IMG/VR virus record: IMGVR_UViG_2690316311_000003
Strand: one strand, 5' to 3'
From: a virus
Lineage: Duplodnaviria; Heunggongvirae; Uroviricota; Caudoviricetes
Length of the DNA stretch: 21,839 nt
In this document: in pieces, positions 1 through 20,585 of the stretch
Layout: each line of letters opens with the position of its first letter
Numbering within the stretch: the stretch's first letter is position 1
Translations under genes and position numbers: made by a program
Notes under the pieces: model-generated
What the model was told of the DNA's origin: nothing
What the model saw: the letters and a program-made list of their open reading frames with translations, nothing else
The model's database searches: none

Positions 1-104
1 CGGAGCTGACCACCATGTTCTGCTACATCGTCGGTGTGAGCAAATGCCTGCGTGATATCCAGACCCACGCGGAGTACATCAACGACAAGGCAGGGTTCTT
101 CTGA
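1..104 (+). CDS. 3' end of an unidentified CDS entering from the left edge
   Basis: Open frame 3 from the window edge to TGA at 102-104 (…AEYINDKAGFF*), GC-rich; followed by a weak hairpin at 112-127 and an A/T tract. Confidence 0.3.
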   Translation, partial: ELTTMFCYIVGVSKCLRDIQTHAEYINDKAGFF

Positions 105-147
105 CGGCGGCGGCACAGGGACGTGCCTTTAAATAATTCTGTACAGA

Positions 148-176
148 TTGCAGACTGGGGGTGAATAGCGTACTAT
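148..176 (+). promoter_or_regulatory. Putative sigma70 promoter for the 210-aa accessory gene
   Basis: TTGCAG (148-153), 17-nt spacer, TACTAT (171-176); lies about 75 nt upstream of the SD GGGAGGA (239-245) and ATG at 250. Confidence 0.4.
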
Positions 177-249
177 TACCTCAAGGGTAAGAAAGCATTT
201 TTAATCTTCCCTTCAAAACGCGTCCTGTAGCCAAACATGGGAGGACGAA

Positions 250-882
250 ATGAGAACAAATACAACAAGAAAAGCGATGCCATACATTATCCCAGAAGCA
301 GATTTCGATAGAAAACTGAACATGTCTGAGAAGAACACTAGTCACACCGAAAGCTACTTAGCGAAAGGTGTGGTTGATTTCGTTCTTCCGGGATTCACAA
401 CACCTTATGGTTATCGCCTTGTAAAATCTTGTAATGGCGATCATTACAGAATGATTACTACCAGCGATACTCCAGAAACGGTGTATGCGGTTAAGTTAAT
501 CTTTCGGGAAGATATCGTCGAAGCCAAAAGAACATGTACGCAGATCATGGTATGGCGTACGCCTAATGTTATTCATGACCGTGCTGTTCATGGTTTGCCT
601 CAGATTTTTTTTCAGTTCTTCCTAGAGCAATATGCGATCGTTGTATCTGATGAGCAACAAACAATCGATGGGAGAAGATTCTGGGAAAGAATGATTTCTT
701 GGGCTATAAACACCCCGGGATATAATGTATACGTTTCAGATGGCTCTGAAGAAGATAGACCTCTTAGCTTCATGACATCATGGGATGATTTCTATAGCCA
801 GTGGGCTGATTTCTGTTGGGGCAGTGATAAAGATGTGCATACCCACAGACTACTGGTTATAAGCAAAGATAAACTGCATTAA
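250..882 (+). CDS. Hypothetical 210-aa cytoplasmic protein; AT-rich accessory (moron) gene of unknown function
   Basis: ATG start with strong SD, about 40% GC against about 52% in neighbouring phage genes, 10 of 14 Arg codons are AGA, own promoter-like element and terminator, opposite strand to the structural operon. No motif recognised. Confidence 0.8.
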   Translation: MRTNTTRKAMPYIIPEADFDRKLNMSEKNTSHTESYLAKGVVDFVLPGFTTPYGYRLVKSCNGDHYRMITTSDTPETVYAVKLIFREDIVEAKRTCTQIMVWRTPNVIHDRAVHGLPQIFFQFFLEQYAIVVSDEQQTIDGRRFWERMISWAINTPGYNVYVSDGSEEDRPLSFMTSWDDFYSQWADFCWGSDKDVHTHRLLVISKDKLH

Positions 883-885
883 TAG

Positions 886-908
886 AAGCCCGCAGCGCGG
901 GCTTTTTT
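886..908 (+). terminator. Rho-independent terminator
   Basis: Stem AGCCCGC (887-893) / GCGGGCT (897-903) with a 3-nt loop, then a T-run to 908, starting 4 nt after the stop at 880-882. Confidence 0.75.
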
Positions 909-980
909 GTGGACGAAACAAAAGTCAGTGCTACACTCATTGACGCCACATTGAGGTGGCTTATAGATGGAAATTTCACA

Positions 981-1142
981 ATGAAAAAAGCATTTGCTGC
1001 ACTGTTCGTTTTGTTGTCTCTGGTAGCTTCAACTCAGGCCTTTGCCGGTCGTTGTCAGCACGACAGCGATACTGCCGCTGACGGCTCCCGCTGCGGTGGG
1101 CGTTCTGCGGATTCCCGCCCGGGCGGCGGTGGCATTCGTTAA
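981..1142 (+). CDS. Small secreted peptide precursor (53 aa): Sec-type signal peptide, then a 31-aa Gly-rich mature peptide with two Cys
   Basis: MKK + hydrophobic core + AFA|G cleavage motif; mature GRCQHDSDTAADGSRCGGRSADSRPGGGGIR. The ORF track's GTG start at 909 would place the signal peptide internally, so ATG 981 is preferred. GC-rich, unlike the adjacent 210-aa gene. Confidence 0.55.
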   Translation: MKKAFAALFVLLSLVASTQAFAGRCQHDSDTAADGSRCGGRSADSRPGGGGIR

Positions 1143-1184: not shown

Positions 1185-1325
1185 TTATGACAAGCCTATG
1201 TACCCTGCTACACCAGATAATATCAAAATAACTGCAACAGCAAATTCGCCATCGTCAATGATACATTTGCGGTTCATAACGCCAAGTGCAACAAGCGCAA
1301 ACACAACAAGAATAAAAGCAATCAT
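1185..1325 (-). CDS. Small hydrophobic membrane protein (46 aa, two predicted TM helices), not in the ORF track
   Basis: Hand translation: MIAFILVVFALVALGVMNRKCIIDDGEFAVAVILILSGVAGYIGLS*. SD AAGGA 6 nt upstream of ATG, starts 10 nt after the stop of the 824-aa gene, followed by the operon terminator. Confidence 0.5.
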   Translation of the reverse strand: MIAFILVVFALVALGVMNRKCIIDDGEFAVAVILILSGVAGYIGLS

Positions 1326-1334
1326 TTCTCATCC

Positions 1335-3809
1335 TTATTGCGGAGTGACATCCTGTGGTCGCCACCAGTATGTCTGGTTAAACTCTTTCTTCGAACGTTG
1401 CTCCATTTTACGCAAATAACCTGGTGAAAAATACTCCTGCATCTGGTTAAAGATCATGTGATCGAGAGCCGCCTTTAAGTACCAGAGATTCGCACCAGGC
1501 ATCAAACCTTTCCCCAGCTTCACCAGATCACCACCAGTCTGCTCACTCTTCCCTTCCACAGCATTTAACGGTATGCCCTGAGCAATCTTCACTACGTCAT
1601 CAACCAGACCAGCTACCGGGCCAAGCATCGACGCCAGCGCGCCGCTTCCGTACCTAGTGTGATCTGACAATAAAAAGTCACCGTAAAGGCCAAGACCACC
1701 ACCTTTCAGTAGAGCACCAAGCCAGAATTTTGCGGCATCTTCTCCTGTCATCTCTCGAGGATTACGACCAGACGCAAGGTCGTTAAGTTGCTGCGACAAA
1801 GCGCCAAGAATGGTCGTACTGGCAATAAACGTCGCAATATATGCCGCACGCCCACCAGCAGACGGCATACCCATAGCGCGTGACCAGTGACGCATAACAA
1901 CCGAGATAGGGAACGATTTAAACAGGAAAACACTTCTCGTTAATTCACCTTTCCATGTTCCACGCTGAATACCAGAACCGGTTATCAGTTGCTCACGTGC
2001 TCCCGGTGTAATAACAGCCATATCAACTTCTTCAGTTACGGCACCGAGCAGTTTACGCATTGCCTCAAATTTCACGCGTTCAGGCTCACCAAGATGTTTA
2101 ACTGCTGAATCAGGGATACGCATAATGCTTTCCGGTGTCAGCATCGTATTATTACCGTTCCCCCAGTCCTCCTGTTGCGCCAGCTTCCATACGCTCCAGT
2201 CTGTGTCAGTAATCCCTTTACTTTTCAGGATACGAAAATCAGAGTCATCGAGGCTACGAAGGTCTGGTGTCCGTGACACTACTTCTCCCAGGCTTCCCAT
2301 CATGGTTACGCCATAGGCGCGCTTGTGCGCATCTGACCATGCTGTAAGCCCACTGGCACGCATTACCGCCGTTGCCGCCCAACGAGACACAGACGGCCCC
2401 ATATTATCCATCGCCCAGCGGTTAACGCTGCCAAGTAGAGATTCCATCGCCAGGCCAGCGCGGCGCGCCCGCGCAAGCTCAGTACGGTTCGTTGGGTCCA
2501 TAGCTTCAAGCTGGTTGCGAAATAACTGGTTCATTGGAAGGTTGGTAACCTTCGCAGACAGATACATGGTTCCAAGATCAGAGAACGATGACAGCAACGC
2601 GGATCCGAGTCTGCTGGCAACCAGCCAGTTGCGGATATTGTCAGACCATCGCGCGATGTGCGGATTCGCTACAGGCTGTGTTTTTCCGGAAATAAAGTTG
2701 TACAAGTTCTCTGTTTTGTTCGCCAGACGCTCGACGCTACCGGTTTTACTCGGGTTAGCTGTTGCCGTTTCTGCCTTAACCTGATCAAGAAGAGAGCGGA
2801 AAACATGATCGGGGTTTGGGCCATATGTTTCCACCAGCGCAATATCTTTACTGATACCTTCCAGGTGACCGACCATGATTTCCCATAGAGAGCGATCGCC
2901 ATAAAGTTGCTGATATTGCAGATAGGAATCTGCATCTTTGAAATGTATCTGTCGTGATGCATTACCACGGTTAGCACGTACGCCGGAAATTCGCATTCCG
3001 GTATCAGTAAGCTTATTCAGCCCACCAGTAGCGATCGTGTTATAAGCCTCTCCAAGAAATGCAGACAACTCGGCATCGTTCATCAGTTGTCCATCGGCTC
3101 GGGTATAATATTTGCGATCCAGCTTACCTATAACATCGCTAACCCATTTATCTTTTGATACCGCCCCAACCTTTTCCATAGAATGATGTTGAGGGATCCC
3201 CCAGTTTTCGAGATAGCCAATGTCCCCACCAGCATCATTAAACCGGCGGCGCAGTAGATCTGTCACTTCTCTCCACGCCTTAGCACCTTTTCTTGCTTTA
3301 GCATTGCCAGTATTTTGCCCTCGCATTTCATATACCAGGTCACGCACGCCCGCTTCATCTTCAAACAGGCCAAAAAAGCGAGGATCAACTGCTTCAAATG
3401 CCTCCTGCAATTGACTCAATGCATAATCACGAGTGGCTTTTGTTCTGGATTCAACAGAGAGGAAATTCGATTTACCGTCTGCATTAAAAGCAATAGTACG
3501 GTTAAGAGCGCCAAGTTTCCCATCAGCCCCTTGATAGCTATTGATAAATTTATCCAATCTCTGACGTGCGGCTATAGTGAGGGCCACACGACGTTTCTTT
3601 AATGCCGCTTCTCGCTGTAATTCTTCAGATGCCAATTGTGCTGCACGATACAACCGTTCTGATTCGGAAAGTTGTCGCCACGACATCGGGTCATCACGAG
3701 CAATGGAGCGCATATTTCGATAAATGCGGTCTTCAATGTTCTGTATTTCTCGCGCCGTTAACGTGCGCTGCGCCGCCTGCTGGACCGCTTGTATACATTC
3801 CTGTCTCAT
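1335..3809 (-). CDS. Internal virion / ejection protein (824 aa); C-terminal hydrophobic region resembles the C-terminus of T7 gp16
   Basis: Long ORF with SD GAGAGG; helical, FKSF-containing hydrophobic C-terminal segments; last large gene of the structural operon. Confidence 0.8.
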   Translation of the reverse strand: MRQECIQAVQQAAQRTLTAREIQNIEDRIYRNMRSIARDDPMSWRQLSESERLYRAAQLASEELQREAALKKRRVALTIAARQRLDKFINSYQGADGKLGALNRTIAFNADGKSNFLSVESRTKATRDYALSQLQEAFEAVDPRFFGLFEDEAGVRDLVYEMRGQNTGNAKARKGAKAWREVTDLLRRRFNDAGGDIGYLENWGIPQHHSMEKVGAVSKDKWVSDVIGKLDRKYYTRADGQLMNDAELSAFLGEAYNTIATGGLNKLTDTGMRISGVRANRGNASRQIHFKDADSYLQYQQLYGDRSLWEIMVGHLEGISKDIALVETYGPNPDHVFRSLLDQVKAETATANPSKTGSVERLANKTENLYNFISGKTQPVANPHIARWSDNIRNWLVASRLGSALLSSFSDLGTMYLSAKVTNLPMNQLFRNQLEAMDPTNRTELARARRAGLAMESLLGSVNRWAMDNMGPSVSRWAATAVMRASGLTAWSDAHKRAYGVTMMGSLGEVVSRTPDLRSLDDSDFRILKSKGITDTDWSVWKLAQQEDWGNGNNTMLTPESIMRIPDSAVKHLGEPERVKFEAMRKLLGAVTEEVDMAVITPGAREQLITGSGIQRGTWKGELTRSVFLFKSFPISVVMRHWSRAMGMPSAGGRAAYIATFIASTTILGALSQQLNDLASGRNPREMTGEDAAKFWLGALLKGGGLGLYGDFLLSDHTRYGSGALASMLGPVAGLVDDVVKIAQGIPLNAVEGKSEQTGGDLVKLGKGLMPGANLWYLKAALDHMIFNQMQEYFSPGYLRKMEQRSKKEFNQTYWWRPQDVTPQ

Positions 3810-3814
3810 TTAAT

Positions 3815-5617
3815 TTAACCTCTCAAGAAACACGCCACAGCAACATCAAACAGGCTGGAATCCTGTATTGCCTGCTCACTTTCCCTGTTCGCTTCATCCA
3901 GTACTTCACGCGCACTGCGCGATTGTGGATTACCATCATCATCCAGCACGGTGATTATCATGTCCGGAGATTCAAGCAGCGAGTCTTCAGCTATACGCAG
4001 ATCAATATCTCCTGCCGGATCTGCCATCATTTTTTGTTCTGTCTGTTGCAATATCTTACCGGGCTCAAAAGGAGCTACTTCGTCTGGCGTCCTGACCTCT
4101 GCTGTTTTATAGAATGAAACAGCCTGAGCATTAAGTTCACTTTCTGCCTGCTGTCTCCGAGCCAGTTCTGCTCGAGCTTCAAAAAACTGACCGCCAGGCT
4201 CATGCGGTGCCAACGCGTTACGAGAAAATTCCAGGCGTTCTTGTGCCTGCCGGATTCGTTGGTCAATATCGCGAAGTCTGGCCTGTTTATCTGATCGAGC
4301 ACGAGACAAAGCTTTACCGCTACCGGTTGGCTCTTCTGCAAGAATTTGTGCACGCTGTTCAGTGAGATTTTCAATAATTCGTTGGCTATTAGCGATTTCA
4401 GACTGGTAAACCTGTCTATCTCCACGCGGCAAAAGCTGCGCGGCCTGTTCTTCAAGCAACCGATTTTCTATAGCGCGCGCCGTTACTCCATCATCTACAG
4501 ATGACAGAGCCTCATTAACTGCCTGAGACAGCAGACTCTTGCGCCCAGGAATTTCACTGAAAGATGCAGACTCAACAATGCTGGCAACGTCTACAGGTCT
4601 CCCCTGGCTAACATCAGACATAGCTTTTCGCAGAGCCTGAATGTGAGAATTGCGCGAAAGCACGTTGATCGGCACGCCGGGAGAAATATCAATTTCAGCA
4701 TGATGAGCGGCATTCGCCGCCAGTGCCGCATCGACATCAACTGGTGAAAAATTGGGGGTGCTTGTAGCCTCACCGCGAGAGTTAATAAATCTGCCGACAC
4801 CACCAAACGCCACCCCAAGAACAGCATCAATAGCGATTGCCTGTCGATCCAACACATCATACTGGTTAGCCATTTCGCTATAGCCACCATCACGAAGCGT
4901 TTTTGCAGTAAGCCCACGCTGTGCCATACCGAACGCAATATTTGTACCTGCGGCATAGGCAATATCTGGCGTTGCACGTACTGCTGTTGCTGCGGCGCGT
5001 CGCACTGAACTTTCACCCGTCCGCGCAAGCTGAGCCGCCACACCTTCCGCCAGCGCACCACCAGCACGTAACCCGAGGCTCATAGGGATCAGTGTTCCGG
5101 CACCAGCAGTAATACCCTGCACTAATCCCGCTTCCTGCGCCGTCCTGAAATCAACACCCTGTGCTGTCAGCCGTTCAAACTCAGAAAAACCCTGTAGCGA
5201 AGTTACCGCCGCAGCACCTCCGACCGGACCACCGAGCGTTGTACCGATAACAGCCTGCCCGCCCATATCGAACAACCCATAAAGAACCTGCCCGGCGGTT
5301 CCGGTTGTCGCGGCATCAGGCGTCAGCCGCTTAACCTGCTGCTCTGCTAGTTTTCTCTGCTCGGCAATGTATGAAACTGAAGTGTCATTGAGCGAGGTGT
5401 TTTCGTTAACAAACTGAGCAATCGGGGATACGATTTTATCCATCCCTGCCCAGAGCAACTGATCTGGCTTTGCCACCAGCCCGGAGTACAAACCAGACAA
5501 TGCCGCTCCTACAGCATTGTCGAAAAAACCAACATCGCTGTTAAAGCCAACTGGATTTGATGCTGCTTCGTCAAGCTGCTGATTCTGGTTTACTGGATTA
5601 AGGCCAAAGTAACTCAT
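3815..5617 (-). CDS. Internal virion protein (600 aa), Gly/Ala-rich central region
   Basis: ATGA start/stop overlap with the upstream gene; Gly/Ala-rich segments typical of podovirus core proteins. Confidence 0.8.
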   Translation of the reverse strand: MSYFGLNPVNQNQQLDEAASNPVGFNSDVGFFDNAVGAALSGLYSGLVAKPDQLLWAGMDKIVSPIAQFVNENTSLNDTSVSYIAEQRKLAEQQVKRLTPDAATTGTAGQVLYGLFDMGGQAVIGTTLGGPVGGAAAVTSLQGFSEFERLTAQGVDFRTAQEAGLVQGITAGAGTLIPMSLGLRAGGALAEGVAAQLARTGESSVRRAAATAVRATPDIAYAAGTNIAFGMAQRGLTAKTLRDGGYSEMANQYDVLDRQAIAIDAVLGVAFGGVGRFINSRGEATSTPNFSPVDVDAALAANAAHHAEIDISPGVPINVLSRNSHIQALRKAMSDVSQGRPVDVASIVESASFSEIPGRKSLLSQAVNEALSSVDDGVTARAIENRLLEEQAAQLLPRGDRQVYQSEIANSQRIIENLTEQRAQILAEEPTGSGKALSRARSDKQARLRDIDQRIRQAQERLEFSRNALAPHEPGGQFFEARAELARRQQAESELNAQAVSFYKTAEVRTPDEVAPFEPGKILQQTEQKMMADPAGDIDLRIAEDSLLESPDMIITVLDDDGNPQSRSAREVLDEANRESEQAIQDSSLFDVAVACFLRG

Positions 5618-8127
5618 TGCGGAATATCTCCGGAGAATCTCTGACGCTTCTGTGTCAGATCAAGAACAACGGGAGAACCATCATCTTTTAGCAGATAACC
5701 AGTACCAAGTTTCACCAGGTACTGACTATCGCCGTAACTTTGCAAACCATACTGACCAGGCGGTGTTTTTATCCCTGTGCCAACAACTTGTTCATTCCAA
5801 GCCTGATTAACCTGCTTATCGAATTGCTCTGCAGACATTCCCCACGGCAAAAGAACATTCCCCATTCCGTTATAGTCATGCACGCCACCTGTAGCTACGT
5901 TAACAGCCTGTTTCCAGATATCATTGTCAATTTCGCCTGATACCACGCCTTTTTTCGCCATCACACCAGCGTAATAGTCCTTTGCGATCTCGTATGCCAT
6001 TGATGCCCCCTGAGCATCACCAGCAAATGCATCCTTCACCATGTCAGAAAACTCAAGGCGAAGATCAGCATCTTTAGGCATCGGAATACCTTTCGCGTCA
6101 TCAGTACCTTTACGAGCCGCCGCGCCAGCAAGAATTGTCTGCGCAGCGGTTTCTGGAGACACGGAAACATCCGGATTAAACCAGTTTTTTTCTGCCAAAA
6201 TACCACCTGGCTTATCCATCAGTATCCCGGCAACGGCAGCAGATGGAGCGTTGGCACTGATCTGCTGTAGTGCTGACATATACACCTGCCCACCACCAGT
6301 GCTCTGCCTGATGGTATCGAGATATGCTGCCTGTTGGGAAACGGGCGCATCACGAAAGAAAACACCGATCTGATTGGCCTCGTCTTTGGAAAAGAACGTC
6401 AGTGGAGTGCCATATGACTTAGCAAGGTCACTGACCTGAGCAGCACGCAAGGCAACGCTCTGTCCAAAGTTATCCTTATTGCTCATGTCGATAGGCTTTG
6501 CCTGTCCGGCGGCAAGAGAGAACTGTACAGGATCAGCCTGTCGCTGCTTTATCACCTGACTTGCAGCCGACACAACGTTGTCATAAAGAGCGGCTCGTGC
6601 CGCATAACCCTCCCCTGTCTCACCAGTATCCGGGCGTAATTGCTCAACATATGCTGTAATGCTGCTTGTCGGCATGTTGCGGAAAGAGCCTATATACTGT
6701 CCGGCGATTTGCGTATTTCTGAACTCGGTATATCGCAGGTTTCCTTCTCTTACTCCATAAGCTGCAATAAAATCAGCCTCACCAGGTGGGTTAGGAAATT
6801 CAACGCCACGCATATACGCAGCTGTCGCATCGCGAACCTGGCTGTCAATCATCGTTTTATATTCAGCCTGCTGCTGCCGACGCAGTTGATCCGCCTGTCG
6901 CATAAAACTTGCCTGCGCCTCAGGAGATGCCGCATCGAATGCTGCATTACCGGTATAGCGTTTGGTGTTGGTTGGAATTGTTGATAAACCAAGTGCTGCA
7001 CTGACACCAGCAGTTAACTGCTGATCACTGTATGGCTGGCTACCGTTCTCATGATGGATAATGGCTGCACAAAGCGCCTTCAGGGTATCAGGATTAGATG
7101 CATCGAGAGGCTCATCAGCAGAAACGCCAAGTTGTTCGCACACTGCTTTGATATACGACATAGTGTCATTTTTATCAGCAGGCGGTGCCCAGCGATTAAT
7201 TATCTCGCTGACGGTATCAATACCCTGCCTCTGATACGACATCAGGTTCCGCCCTAATGCACGAATCCCGTGTTCAGGTGTTTCGAATTTAGCAAATCGA
7301 CCATCATCACCGGTCTGGCCTACCCACGGATTAGTTTTGCTGTATTCGAGATTTCCTGGGTTATTGTTGCGTATGCCACGGGCACGCTCGGAAGAGTCAC
7401 TATCTGCTACAGCACGGCGAGCTCCAGCAGCAGTATCACTTAACTCGCCATTACTTTGGATGAATGCGGTCGCATTGTTTGCCGACCACTGGGACAATGC
7501 AGCATCAGCAACCTTCTCTTTAAACTCGATTTTCTTGGCATGGATTTGCTCGTTGCTCCAGCCATGTGCAACACCGTACTCCTCAATTTGCTGGAAAGTT
7601 TGCTTGTTAGCCAATACGTATGCGGCGTTGTCGCCATACAATGCTGCGGCATTTTTACCATTGTTCAGCAGTGTCGCCTGAAACTGGCCTTCTTCGTAGG
7701 CATTAATTTGCCCTATCTCGTGTCGCCCGGCCTGCGTAGTGAACTGAATGCGCTGCTGCTGCGCCTGCTGCATGAAAGCATTACGAGCCTGTTCATCCGG
7801 CAGCGACATAGCCAGTTGTTCGACCTGAGCATCAAACTGCTGCGTATACTCATGGCCTTTTCCAATAGCATTTTTCCCTTTCAGGTTAAGCAATCCTGTT
7901 TCAGGATTATTCAGCAGATCGCTGCTTATCTGACTGAGGTTAAGAGATGCCTCCTGAGCCAGAGCGATATTGGCACGCTGTTTTGCCTGCCCCAAAACAT
8001 CAATTGCCTCTGTCCCTGCCCGAACAAAAGCATCACCAATACCTTGCTGAGAAAACGTCTGCAAGCCTGCTGACTGAACTCCACGACTCTCAACCTGACG
8101 TCCGGATACTGTTGGTACGACTGGCAT
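5614..8127 (-). CDS. Internal virion protein (838 aa), T7 gp15/gp16-like by position
   Basis: ORF-track start at 8202 overlaps the upstream gene by 75 nt; ATG at 8127 has SD GGAGGA and a TAATG overlap with the upstream stop. Contains the motif RGIRNNNPGNLEY of unknown significance. Confidence 0.8.
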   Translation of the reverse strand: MPVVPTVSGRQVESRGVQSAGLQTFSQQGIGDAFVRAGTEAIDVLGQAKQRANIALAQEASLNLSQISSDLLNNPETGLLNLKGKNAIGKGHEYTQQFDAQVEQLAMSLPDEQARNAFMQQAQQQRIQFTTQAGRHEIGQINAYEEGQFQATLLNNGKNAAALYGDNAAYVLANKQTFQQIEEYGVAHGWSNEQIHAKKIEFKEKVADAALSQWSANNATAFIQSNGELSDTAAGARRAVADSDSSERARGIRNNNPGNLEYSKTNPWVGQTGDDGRFAKFETPEHGIRALGRNLMSYQRQGIDTVSEIINRWAPPADKNDTMSYIKAVCEQLGVSADEPLDASNPDTLKALCAAIIHHENGSQPYSDQQLTAGVSAALGLSTIPTNTKRYTGNAAFDAASPEAQASFMRQADQLRRQQQAEYKTMIDSQVRDATAAYMRGVEFPNPPGEADFIAAYGVREGNLRYTEFRNTQIAGQYIGSFRNMPTSSITAYVEQLRPDTGETGEGYAARAALYDNVVSAASQVIKQRQADPVQFSLAAGQAKPIDMSNKDNFGQSVALRAAQVSDLAKSYGTPLTFFSKDEANQIGVFFRDAPVSQQAAYLDTIRQSTGGGQVYMSALQQISANAPSAAVAGILMDKPGGILAEKNWFNPDVSVSPETAAQTILAGAAARKGTDDAKGIPMPKDADLRLEFSDMVKDAFAGDAQGASMAYEIAKDYYAGVMAKKGVVSGEIDNDIWKQAVNVATGGVHDYNGMGNVLLPWGMSAEQFDKQVNQAWNEQVVGTGIKTPPGQYGLQSYGDSQYLVKLGTGYLLKDDGSPVVLDLTQKRQRFSGDIPQ

Positions 8128-8672
8128 TATAATCCTCCGGGTAATCTGGTTCCTGCTGCTGCCCCGATTGGCGCAGGAGTGCTTTGAGTAAACGGACTCC
8201 ACGTCCCACCAAACATCTGGTACGCACCGTATGCCTTCAGAGGCGCAGTGAGCAATGTTGTTGCTGCTCCCACATTCCCCTGTTTACGGGCTGAACTGGC
8301 TTCTGCTTTATAGTTGGCAGCCTGAACCTGATAACCGTAAGCCTCGCGTTGCGCGTTATTCACCGTCGTCAGCGAATCAAGAGCGCCAAACTGGGCAGTG
8401 TCGCCAAATATATCCAGCGCGTTACCTGTAGATAAATCAGCGCCGGTAGCCCCCATTGTCGCCGCCTGTGTACCAAGCCGCTGTCGGGTCTCTCTGCGTC
8501 GTTGCTCAGCTTCAGCGTTACCTCTGTTTATTGCATCATTTGCCTGAGCTGTGGCTATATCTGCGTTCGCTTCTGCAACCTTCGAGGCATACTTTCCCTG
8601 TTGGTACTGGGTGTATGCCTGAATGCCACTCATGGCGAGCATTGCGCCACCAGCAATAACCGGATCGCACAT
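8127..8672 (-). CDS. Internal virion protein (181 aa), T7 gp14-like by size and position
   Basis: TAATG coupling at both ends; Ala/Gln-rich low-complexity protein. Confidence 0.75.
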   Translation of the reverse strand: MCDPVIAGGAMLAMSGIQAYTQYQQGKYASKVAEANADIATAQANDAINRGNAEAEQRRRETRQRLGTQAATMGATGADLSTGNALDIFGDTAQFGALDSLTTVNNAQREAYGYQVQAANYKAEASSARKQGNVGAATTLLTAPLKAYGAYQMFGGTWSPFTQSTPAPIGAAAGTRLPGGL

Positions 8673-18015: not shown

Positions 18016-18387
18016 ATGAACGACCAGCAAATCGAAAAAGAAATCGTTGAGAAAGGCAAAACGGCACCGCGCGTTACGCCAGACCATATCGAAGGCATTA
18101 TTGCTCAGGAGGCATATTTCACAGCAGAAGATGGTGCCTTTGGCAAAGCCATAAAAGCGAAACATACTGGCGGAGAGGTAAACTACCAGCCGCACGAATC
18201 ACTTTCTCTGCTGACGTTCTGCGTCCTGGTGCTGCGCAACGGCTTCACCGTCACCGGAGAGAGTTCCTGTGCAAGTCCGGAAAATTTTGATGCAGAAATT
18301 GGTCGGAAGATTGCCCGGCAGAATGCTGTAAACAAAATCTGGATGCTCGAAGGTTACTTGCTGAAGCAGAAGTTAAGCGAGCAATAA
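18016..18387 (+). CDS. Hypothetical protein (123 aa), resembles the N4 gp49 / Sf6 gp66 family
   Basis: ATG with SD AAGGTGAG; motif LTFCVLVLRNGFTVTGESSCASPENFDAEIGRKIARQNAVNKIW recalled as characteristic of this family; antisense to the structural operon. Confidence 0.75.
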   Translation: MNDQQIEKEIVEKGKTAPRVTPDHIEGIIAQEAYFTAEDGAFGKAIKAKHTGGEVNYQPHESLSLLTFCVLVLRNGFTVTGESSCASPENFDAEIGRKIARQNAVNKIWMLEGYLLKQKLSEQ

Positions 18388-19953: not shown

Positions 19954-20546
19954 TGATTGCCATCCTGACGTTCTTTCAGTCTCTTCCTGGCTGCCGCTAT
20001 GCGATCAGCAATTGTCACATTCACATTAACATCCAGGCGTTCTTTGAATGCGTTGACGTCGACGTGCTTACCAATCAGTTCGAGGTTCTTCACCTTGTCA
20101 GGCCATTTAATTTTTTTGAGGATTGTCTCTATCGAATCCTCGTTCATGTTCATGATGGTCGATGACAGATCAAAGCCACTAAGCGTAGTGCGCCAGATTT
20201 TCGGCCACTCACGGATTGGTTTAAGGCTCCCATCGTCGTTGAGGATATCGATCACGTCCATCTGGTCGATCTCCACCAGGCGCATGAGAACGTAATCAGC
20301 ACTGACGCGCATTCGTTTGTTGCGCTCCTCCATCAACTCGGCAATCCGTTTTTGAATGCGTTCATCGCGCATCATGACACTGGCTTTAACTGCCGCTGTA
20401 TTTGGGGAGAATCCTGCGTTAATCGCTGCCTGAGTCTGGTTTTCAGGCGTTTTGATGTATGACTGGCAATAAGCCTCCTGCATTGCTGTTAGTGGCTTAA
20501 ATTGCGTTGATTTGCGTTTATAGGTTTTAGGTTCAGCAGGAATCAT
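19950..20546 (-). CDS. terS: Terminase small subunit (198 aa from ATG 20546; exact start uncertain)
   Basis: Motif LTAMQEAYCQSYIKTPENQTQAAINAGFSPNTAAVKAS matches the Terminase_2-type small-subunit HTH region. The ORF-track TTG start at 20624 lies upstream of an intrinsic terminator and its N-terminal 26 aa look non-coding. Confidence 0.8.
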   Translation of the reverse strand: MIPAEPKTYKRKSTQFKPLTAMQEAYCQSYIKTPENQTQAAINAGFSPNTAAVKASVMMRDERIQKRIAELMEERNKRMRVSADYVLMRLVEIDQMDVIDILNDDGSLKPIREWPKIWRTTLSGFDLSSTIMNMNEDSIETILKKIKWPDKVKNLELIGKHVDVNAFKERLDVNVNVTIADRIAAARKRLKERQDGNQ

Positions 20547-20552
20547 AACCAC

Positions 20553-20585
20553 CGTGGTAATAGTTACCGTTGTGGTAATAGTACC
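20553..20585. repeat. Tandem direct repeat, two copies of about 16 bp containing GTGGTAATAGT, period 18 bp
   Basis: Core at 20554-20564 and 20572-20582, between the upstream terminator and the terS start codon. Confidence 0.5.

Follow-up and report, generated by a model that had tools for sequence, protein, structure and literature searches.

Near the left end of a 21,839-nucleotide stretch of viral DNA (Caudoviricetes; IMG/VR record IMGVR_UViG_2690316311_000003; the whole stretch is called the window here), an open reading frame (ORF) of 210 residues (250-882, plus strand, ATG start; WP_001260052.1, phrog_1349) forms a single-gene cargo in a swappable slot at the end of the virion/ejection operon. 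The window belongs to a phiV10/epsilon15-like temperate podophage of the genus Uetakevirus and matches, at 100% identity, a prophage that E. coli 2015C-4944 carries integrated beside guaA. The logic of such a slot is known in general from moron-like cargo; its control is unusual, with a predicted immunity-type operator overlapping the -10/+1 region of the slot leader. We propose, with a little less than even confidence, that the ORF is a repressor-gated accessory gene whose product, a divergent GNAT-fold acyltransferase, would modify a conserved cellular target during the active phase of the phage.

A sequence-only reading of this DNA had described the ORF as an AT-rich, AGA-rich accessory gene with a strong Shine-Dalgarno (SD) sequence and a clean intrinsic terminator, and these features stood up. 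The coding sequence (CDS) has a GC content of 0.409 (GC3 0.379) against 0.505 for the remainder of the window, and AGA makes up 10 of its 14 arginine codons, compared with 24 of 267 in seven structural genes. The SD sequence, GGGAGG (239-244, plus strand, read from the sequence), lies 5 nt before the ATG. A true start at M10, where many homologs begin with a conserved MPY motif, was rejected because this strong SD precedes M1, and the variable nine-residue N-terminal extension that close homologs retain also argues for M1. Directly after the stop codon stands the terminator (884-909, plus strand; stem 884-893/897-906 followed by a U-run), with a folding energy of -15.3 kcal/mol and a z-score of -3.1 (2 of 200 shuffles fold equally well), although a consensus terminator scanner did not flag it. 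As the same reading had said, the gene and the structural operon on the minus strand (1335 to about 17090) are transcribed towards each other.

A comparison with related prophages, of the kind that reading had suggested, showed that relatives have the flanks in common but not the cargo ORF. When YafO-type and phiv142-3-type cassettes were aligned by blastn, the common backbone comprised window positions 1-190 and 886/887-1181; with two more diverged cassette types the left backbone stops earlier, at 1-137 or 1-145, while the terminator is common to all types from 886/887 on. The exchangeable cassette (191-885, plus strand; blastn boundaries against YafO, phiv142-3, DUF4760 and DUF2335 cassettes) consists of the 5' untranslated region (UTR), SD and CDS. 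The shared leader to its left contains a weak hairpin after the stop codon of the preceding Bro-N gene (GGCAC-N6-GTGCC, 112-128, plus strand; -8.5 kcal/mol, z -0.6, not significant), which is kept in all cassette types and absent from phiV10. Among 5426 complete E. coli genomes, 557 carry the slot flanks and 93-94 the 210-residue gene, whose E. coli copies are, with one exception, at least 99% identical.

The other occupants of the slot are diverse: a 181-residue homolog of YafO-family toxins that has no antitoxin annotated with it, a protein with DUF4760, a membrane protein with DUF2335, a pair of 55- and 147-residue ORFs and, in phiv142-3, three small ORFs. The YafO homologs (loci L007, 1807-2352, and L023, 1800-2345) are longer than E. 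coli YafO, possibly by an N-terminal extension, and it is specifically a YafN-like antitoxin that is not annotated beside them. PADLOC 2.0 matched none of nine neighbouring or alternative cargo proteins, and the idea that the slot is a recognised defence hotspot was rejected because the alternative cargoes had no such match. In phiV10 the slot and the 53-residue gene that follows it were lost by deletion between GGCGGNGGCA repeats; the junction corresponds to window positions 105-114 and about 1122-1134 (L001, 3015-3104) and leaves a 30-residue fusion ORF, PhiV10p22.

The gene also occurs outside this slot. In the lambdoid phage LLS it stands alone after the Rz/Rz1 lysis genes, with 84% amino acid identity and with nucleotide homology that spans only 213-882, that is, the SD and CDS, so the mobile unit is the bare gene. 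Because leader and terminator are common to unrelated cassettes and only 213-882 moves into LLS, both belong to the slot and not to the gene. The sequence-only reading was thus right to see an accessory cargo gene, given the variable slot and the foreign composition, but not in assigning it a promoter and terminator of its own. The insert resembles classical morons of temperate phages (lambda bor/lom, P22 sieA beside immI, NeaT) in being present in some and missing from other collinear phage genomes, in its atypical GC content and codon usage, in its orientation opposite to the virion genes and in the terminator right after the gene. It departs from them in that the leader up to 190 and the terminator from 886 on are the slot's; moreover, the leader bears a predicted immunity operator, which makes lysogen expression, the classical hallmark, doubtful. 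One of these morons, NeaT of the CFT073 prophage phi-b0847, is an AT-rich acyltransferase gene located among tail genes (PMC3573123); as a relative it was rejected, being a PF01757 membrane enzyme of an unrelated family.

The claim of a sigma70-like promoter weakened on inspection. The promoter-like element of the slot backbone (148-176, plus strand; TTGCAG at 148-153, N17, TACTAT at 171-176) agrees with the consensus at 7 of 12 positions, and the consensus promoter scan did not flag it; promoter-like matches in this region are no commoner than in shuffles. Scans of four other contexts were likewise at chance level and decided nothing. A 5-nt deletion in two sister cassettes (L022/L023) leaves a spacer of only 12 nt, so the -35 assignment is doubtful. 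The -10-like hexamer, which ends on the first T of a palindrome, TTACC-N5-GGTAA, is kept in diverged leaders as TAATAT (L005) and TAAAAT (L006).

This palindrome is the most distinctive element of the leader. Its copy TTACCTCAAGGGTAA (176-190) starts on the last T of TACTAT, overlaps -10/+1 and is at the same time the left junction of the cassette, the backbone ending exactly where the predicted operator ends (190). The window contains three exact copies where 0.02 are expected, and none of 100 shuffles reached three. Motif search placed the second (17404-17418) upstream of the tRNA island and the third (20564-20578) next to a copy with one mismatch, the two together occupying 20546-20578 at the 5' end of the small-terminase gene, terS, whose PHROG match begins at residue 29 of the longest ORF. 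Two more copies lie upstream of the p24-like and Bro-N genes (L004, 2631-2645 and 3011-3025). The half-sites are kept in the leaders of all cassette types, including the two diverged ones (TTACC-TTAAA-GGTAA and TTACC-CGATT-GGTAA), and a matching -10/operator geometry recurs at a promoter ahead of the Bro-N leader, TTGAAA-17-TATCAT, which agrees with the consensus at 10 of 12 positions.

In the source prophage the same palindrome clusters in the cI-like/cro-like and PL-like regions: a tripartite set (one exact, one with two mismatches, one with one mismatch) lies between divergent cI-like and cro-like genes, and on the far side of the cI-like gene a pair lies at the leftward (PL-like) promoter region. 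Other sites follow cro, precede the DUF1064 and holin genes and lie near int. The prophage (about 45 kb) has nine exact sites and the flanking chromosome (about 25 kb) none. In total there are some 15 copies, ahead of most prophage transcription units (positions outside the window: L115 8453, 14538, 14600, 15312, 15331, 15360, 15697, 17661 and 17723; L114 4897), and together they probably represent the repressor/Cro regulon of this Uetakevirus. The cI-like protein (194 residues; WP_000836290.1) has an HTH_3 domain and lacks an S24 domain. In the related phage ZX5, overexpression of the homologous HTH repressor turns off lytic genes, and the Bro-N homolog, ORF4, acts as an anti-repressor upon overexpression; the operator was not defined in that study (PMC9782041), and our literature search found no published operator definition for this phage group.

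As the predicted operator covers -10/+1, the gene is most likely repressed in the lysogen, and its silence there is also argued by the antitoxin-less YafO-like toxins that the slot hosts, since a lysogen could tolerate these only in a silent slot. Judging from these sequence features, the slot would be a repressor-gated expression site, silent in the lysogen and active upon infection or induction, and such gating would also account for the presence of YafO homologs that have no antitoxin. We envisage that the slot supplies the signals, a -10-like element fused to the operator (176-190) upstream and the terminator (884-909) downstream, and that each cassette would contribute only its 5' UTR, SD and CDS. 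The prophage's Cro/C1-type repressor would hold the gene off in a lysogen; where the repressor is absent or inactivated, as in the infection of a naive cell or upon induction, the gene would be transcribed together with the neighbouring Bro-N anti-repressor gene. The product is proposed to be a soluble, stand-alone putative acyltransferase, presumably using acyl-CoA, that may act on a conserved Enterobacterales target in host takeover or counter-defence.

The sequence-only reading had instead taken the gene to be lysogen-expressed. In that explanation it would be a moron that protects the host, by defence, superinfection exclusion or abortive infection, from a constitutive promoter of its own while the rest of the prophage is silent. 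We regard this as unlikely, even though the anatomy and composition are those of a classic moron and the position is analogous to that in P22, where sieA adjoins immI. Orthologs on bacterial chromosomes (see below) are under purifying selection, which implies a benefit to the bacterium, and the solitary place of the gene in P1-like elements, where the genes on either side lie on the other strand, shows that it can be autonomous. However, the only promoter-like element has the predicted immunity operator across its -10/+1, the slot also bears antitoxin-less toxin homologs, PADLOC matches neither the protein nor the alternative cargoes, and relatives occur in lytic phages. A genus-wide fixed synteny with dN/dS of 0.05-0.2 is, in addition, unlike the patchy turnover usual for defence genes.

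The assignment of the product as a GNAT is made at the level of the fold. The protein matches phrog_1349, which has no annotated function, from end to end (3e-113), and has no match in Pfam, NCBIfam or PADLOC; searches of the PDB with the single sequence and with two profiles found nothing either. Its close relatives fall into 63 clusters, every one of them from Enterobacterales and labelled hypothetical, and a profile search of 1.84 billion representatives returned 901 clusters at E <= 1e-3, the majority of them proteins with one domain and a length near 200 residues. All 137 sampled members of this wide family match phrog_1349 and none matches a Pfam GNAT model, and hhalign against PhnO gave a probability of 0.2%, which is not significant, so that no sequence-profile link to any GNAT family was seen. 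As far as we found, the family has not been treated in a paper and is covered neither by Pfam or NCBIfam nor by a defence catalogue, and literature searches on WP_001260052, phrog_1349 and DUF4760 yielded nothing useful. A T4 Mrh-like identity (PF24070) was considered on account of a faint Pfam match in 1 of the 137 members and was rejected, hhalign giving a probability of at most 0.1% against T4 Mrh and ModA.3.

Structure prediction and a Foldseek search, which the sequence-only reading had proposed, gave a consistent if weak answer. AlphaFold2, run with a 61-sequence alignment, predicted an antiparallel sheet followed by two successive beta-alpha-beta crossovers (pLDDT 81, pTM 0.78), and in three libraries the predicted fold matched only GNAT-fold proteins. 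Foldseek matches in the PDB were weak (E about 1e-2, TM 0.3-0.4), every one of them a GNAT; in BFVD, uncharacterised phage proteins came first (from the Agrobacterium jumbo phage Atu_ph07 and others, E down to 2e-10), followed by NAT_SF/acyl-CoA N-acyltransferase entries. The predicted structure has the mixed alpha/beta order of the GNAT fold (beta1-alpha1-alpha2-beta2-4-alpha3-beta5-alpha4-beta6), whereas no sequence or profile match places the protein among the GNATs at a significant level. The statement that the protein has no recognisable family therefore holds for its sequence (Pfam, NCBIfam, PADLOC, PDB) but not for its fold, and the model suggests a very divergent GNAT. Fold, size and single-domain soluble architecture are those of GNAT/NAT_SF proteins; it is set apart by low Z and TM scores, by additional strands and by a lengthened beta4-alpha3 loop.

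Residues conserved in the wide family are N29, Y79, Q98, W102, R103, F120, F121, D134, Q137, T138, G141, F144, W145, A152, Y161, D164, W190 and G191, among which N29, Q98, R103, D134, Q137, T138, Y161 and D164 form a conserved polar pocket. We placed the motifs by a mapping from the secondary-structure string, with beta4 at 96-103, alpha3 at 116-127, beta5 at 130-132 and alpha4 at 139-154. On this mapping G115-L-P117 (G-x-A in the wide-family consensus; G115 present in 79 of 137 members) falls at the N-terminus of the predicted alpha3, the place of motif A, and T138-x-x-G141-x-x-F144-W145 falls at motif B, which in ordinary GNATs reads N-x-x-A-x-x-F/L-Y. The best-conserved segment of the family (D134..QT..G..FW) is thus at the place of motif B; the sole local hhalign alignment with PhnO sets this segment against AHRFYER of PhnO and was not significant.

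That the protein is a non-catalytic GNAT-like binder appears very unlikely, and the sequence bears on this in two ways. A canonical motif A is not evident, the position of the catalytic tyrosine is apparently a tryptophan, and aromatic side chains predominate among the residues with the highest conservation (Y79, W102, F144, W145, W190), all of which would suit a binder. Yet polar residues conserved across 137 diverse members (N29, Q98, R103, D134, Q137, T138, D164) suggest a chemical active site, and the catalytic tyrosine is missing in many GNATs.

To place the family outside this phage, we scanned one genome per species (80 loci), clustered the neighbours and named representatives with NCBIfam. 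About 55 of the 80 loci lie in genus-wide syntenic, non-phage contexts. In about 17 species of Enterobacter, Leclercia, Lelliottia and Silvania the gene stands between genes for a mechanosensitive-channel-like protein, an MFS transporter and a regulator on one side and nfsB, TetR, MBL-fold and AraC genes on the other. About 11 species of Buttiauxella, Dryocola and Cedecea have it between a sensor kinase gene and phnP-phnO-phnN-phnM, seven of Photorhabdus between chb PTS genes and hda, an arsC-like gene and bepA, and six of Proteus between thiD and pagP. Five Morganella species have a fixed site of their own, and Xenorhabdus has two sites, one of them between ppc and metF-argE. The syntenic clades show dN/dS values of 0.05-0.23, with dS near 0.9-1.4, and the GC content of the chromosomal gene follows that of the host genome, from 0.34 in Proteus to 0.52 in Enterobacter, which together indicate long vertical inheritance under purifying selection. 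The family is therefore not phage-specific: in the one-genome-per-species set the majority of copies are chromosomal, lie in conserved synteny and evolve under purifying selection.

The GC content of the E. coli phage copy (0.409) equals that of the Photorhabdus copies, to which it is 61-63% identical. The Photorhabdus ortholog (L030-L039) lies directly upstream of hda-arsC-like-bepA-perM, and the E. coli prophage lies about 12 kb from the equivalent hda-arsC-bepA-yfgO block (L114, 19119-23075); this shared vicinity is probably a coincidence.

The fixed chromosomal copies, which in many genera are under strong purifying selection, would also suit a detoxifying or metabolic acetyltransferase that benefits the host. 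Like AAC, MccE, PhnO and phosphinothricin acetyltransferases, such an enzyme would have a small molecule as its acyl acceptor, for instance an antibiotic, an antimetabolite or a bacteriocin-like toxin, and E. coli, which has no chromosomal copy, would gain the function through its phage by lysogenic conversion. The neighbours in the Enterobacter clade (MFS transporter, nfsB nitroreductase, TetR, MBL-fold, AraC), the site beside the phn operon in Buttiauxella and the presence of AAC(2'), phosphinothricin, streptothricin and MccE acetyltransferases among the fold matches point the same way. We nonetheless think this quite unlikely: repressor-gated expression would deny the lysogen the benefit, the chromosomal neighbours are not co-oriented operon partners, and relatives in a T4-like early region and a jumbo phage, together with members in which an MqsA-N or SRA domain is fused to this one, suggest a role in conflict or on macromolecules.

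These last relatives belong to a varied set of mobile copies. Serratia siphophages carry the gene in tail clusters, beside P22-type antirepressor/Arc modules; P1-like Citrobacter elements have it as a single opposite-strand gene between the pmgA-like and sit genes; and further copies are found in a Xenorhabdus element with DnaB and VgrG-like genes, in large plasmids of Aeromonas and others (the Aeromonas plasmid contexts were uninformative) and in a Burkholderia jumbo phage. Members of the wide family occur in a T4-like early region and at a site near an ArdC gene. Two distant members are fusions: P0153 (L021) joins the zinc-ribbon N-domain of the antitoxin MqsA to a phrog_1349-type domain, and P0134 (L106, 4823-6080) joins an SRA_ScoMcrA modified-DNA-binding domain to one, with an overlapping Phd/YefM gene upstream and three Phd-like genes in the locus.

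Both fusions, P0153 through its MqsA antitoxin domain and the distant P0134 through its overlapping Phd/YefM antitoxin gene, speak for a toxin-like GNAT effector that blocks translation, as AtaT and TacT do by acetylating aminoacyl-tRNA, and that would serve host shut-off or abortive infection while being kept harmless by transcriptional repression instead of an antitoxin. The YafO-like toxins without antitoxins in the same slot and the tight silencing that the operator implies agree with this. It is hard to square, however, with solitary chromosomal copies that are stable without an adjacent antitoxin in at least five genera, if the toxin were constitutive, and beyond the fold there is no specific similarity to GNAT toxins; the 210-residue protein has no sequence similarity to those of type II toxin-antitoxin systems (AtaT, TacT, KacT, ItaT). 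No antitoxin partner (RHH/DUF1778 or similar) is adjacent in the window, the source genome or the chromosomal contexts, P0134 with its Phd/YefM neighbour being the only case. We accordingly consider a toxin very unlikely.

The nearest functional model for the reading we favour, a repressor-gated acyltransferase, is Rac of phiKMV-like Pseudomonas phages, an early predicted GNAT that inactivates host RNA polymerase (PMC7552054). Like the protein proposed here it is a phage-encoded, stand-alone predicted GNAT that acts on the host during infection, and it provides a precedent; unlike it, Rac shows no detectable homology to our protein and belongs to virulent phages, whereas the 210-residue gene is swappable cargo of a temperate phage with chromosomal orthologs. 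The conserved polar pocket and the members of the wide family in T4-like early regions, in a jumbo phage and near ArdC also count in favour of this reading. If the role were anti-defence, AcrVA5 would be a possible analogue, although it is far smaller and no search found homology to it. AcrVA5 is a small phage-borne GNAT that acetylates Cas12a in counter-defence.

Several observations weigh against this reading. The -35 element is weak and not conserved, being displaced by the 5-nt deletion in two cassettes; the AT-rich flank of the operator on its own looks like the end of a -10 hexamer; and what suggests an operator here is the position and statistics of the palindrome. In the protein the canonical Q/RxxGxG/A motif is not evident, and a tryptophan (W145) appears to take the place of the catalytic tyrosine, which are also points of difference from ordinary GNAT/NAT_SF enzymes. 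Conserved syntenic chromosomal copies, finally, fit a host-beneficial, housekeeping-like enzyme better than a phage weapon, and nothing speaks more strongly against a purely phage-serving role than this conservation. Against a lysogen-serving role, the weightiest arguments are the operator, the toxins that share the slot and the relatives in lytic phages. A single biochemical activity used by both phage and chromosome would reconcile the two sets of arguments.

A wider and more tentative reading, which we hold to be somewhat doubtful, is that phrog_1349 is a large, unrecognised family of GNAT-fold effectors that phages, phage-plasmids and plasmids deploy when repression lifts, to acylate a conserved bacterial target in counter-defence or takeover, while chromosomal paralogs would perform a physiological version of the same reaction. 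The Uetakevirus slot would then be a plug-in site with a fixed promoter-operator and terminator and a swapped payload (GNAT-like protein, antitoxin-less YafO toxin, membrane proteins).

The slot is bounded on the left by the 3' end of the Bro-N gene (1-103, plus strand; stop TGA at 101-103), an anti-repressor-like gene annotated BRO-N in the identical source genome, whose full protein matches Pfam Bro-N at 4e-19. Its upstream region (L004, 2983-3132) has the operator-bearing promoter, then after about 100 nt a clean terminator (ACCACGCCAGACGTGGT + T7) and about 160 nt further the Bro-N gene, a layout that resembles a leader, attenuator or small RNA and is reminiscent of P22 immI control. To the right of the cassette, the constant neighbour is a gene for a 53-residue signal-peptide-like protein (981-1142, plus strand; WP_000708858.1), which matches phrog_14503, 'membrane associated protein' in the moron category (2.6e-40), and is annotated in every sister prophage, whichever type of cassette lies beside it. 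The protein has a signal-peptide-like N-terminus, MKKAFAALFVLLSLVASTQAFA, cut before G, and a tail rich in Gly, Arg and Asp. Upstream of it lies a promoter-like TTGACG-16-TATAGA (940-967) where the operator copy is absent, and this gene may be the truly lysogen-expressed element of the island.

A bidirectional terminator hairpin (1148-1165; found as a minus-strand scan match, folding on both strands with z -4.8 and -4.0) separates the plus-strand island from the minus-strand structural operon. The operon's last gene encodes a 46-residue membrane protein (1185-1325, minus strand; PhiV10p21 homolog, phrog_7892, 5.5e-33; two predicted transmembrane helices in the phiV10 annotation). The virion operon proper (1335 to about 17090, minus strand) has at this end the gene for an 824-residue virion structural protein (1335-3809, minus strand; PhiV10p20 homolog by the phiV10 annotation, phrog_684, E = 0), and further along the window come tail, capsid, portal and terminase genes. 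It includes an 862-residue virion protein (5614-8202, minus strand) with PHROG matches to a head protein, an endolysin and a tail-injection transglycosylase, probably an ejection protein with a peptidoglycan-degrading domain.

A tRNA-Arg(UCU) gene (17741-17817, plus strand; Rfam tRNA, 73.3 bits; ARAGORN anticodon tct), which decodes AGA and belongs to the backbone of phiV10-type phages, lies within the minus-strand packaging/structural region, in a small plus-strand island. AGA, the codon it reads, is the main arginine codon of the cargo gene and rare in the structural genes. On the 3' side of the tRNA a 123-residue ORF (18016-18387, plus strand; phrog_322), with terminator-like hairpins on both sides, makes another small opposite-strand island inside the late region. 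Elsewhere in the source prophage a GtrA gene (L114, 4407-4867) with a truncated glycosyltransferase pseudogene is the remnant of an O-antigen modification module, and a second antirepressor gene, of the AntA type (L115, 9792-10448), adjoins the integrase gene.

Should our reading be wrong, the ORF would be an ordinary hypothetical cargo gene. If it is right, a family of some 900 clusters that is absent from domain databases would gain a fold assignment and a testable biochemical hypothesis, with members in prophages of E. coli pathogens (1.7% of complete genomes), in lytic phages, on plasmids and on the core chromosomes of Proteus, Enterobacter, Photorhabdus and others. The motif TTACC-N5-GGTAA, with its 15 or so sites, would map the repressor regulon of this phage group, and the slot would be a warning that an AT-rich insert among virion genes, flanked by a terminator, need not be expressed in the lysogen. 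The phiV10-type phages would then be a clean natural example of a repressor-gated payload slot, which would explain how antitoxin-less toxins can be carried safely.

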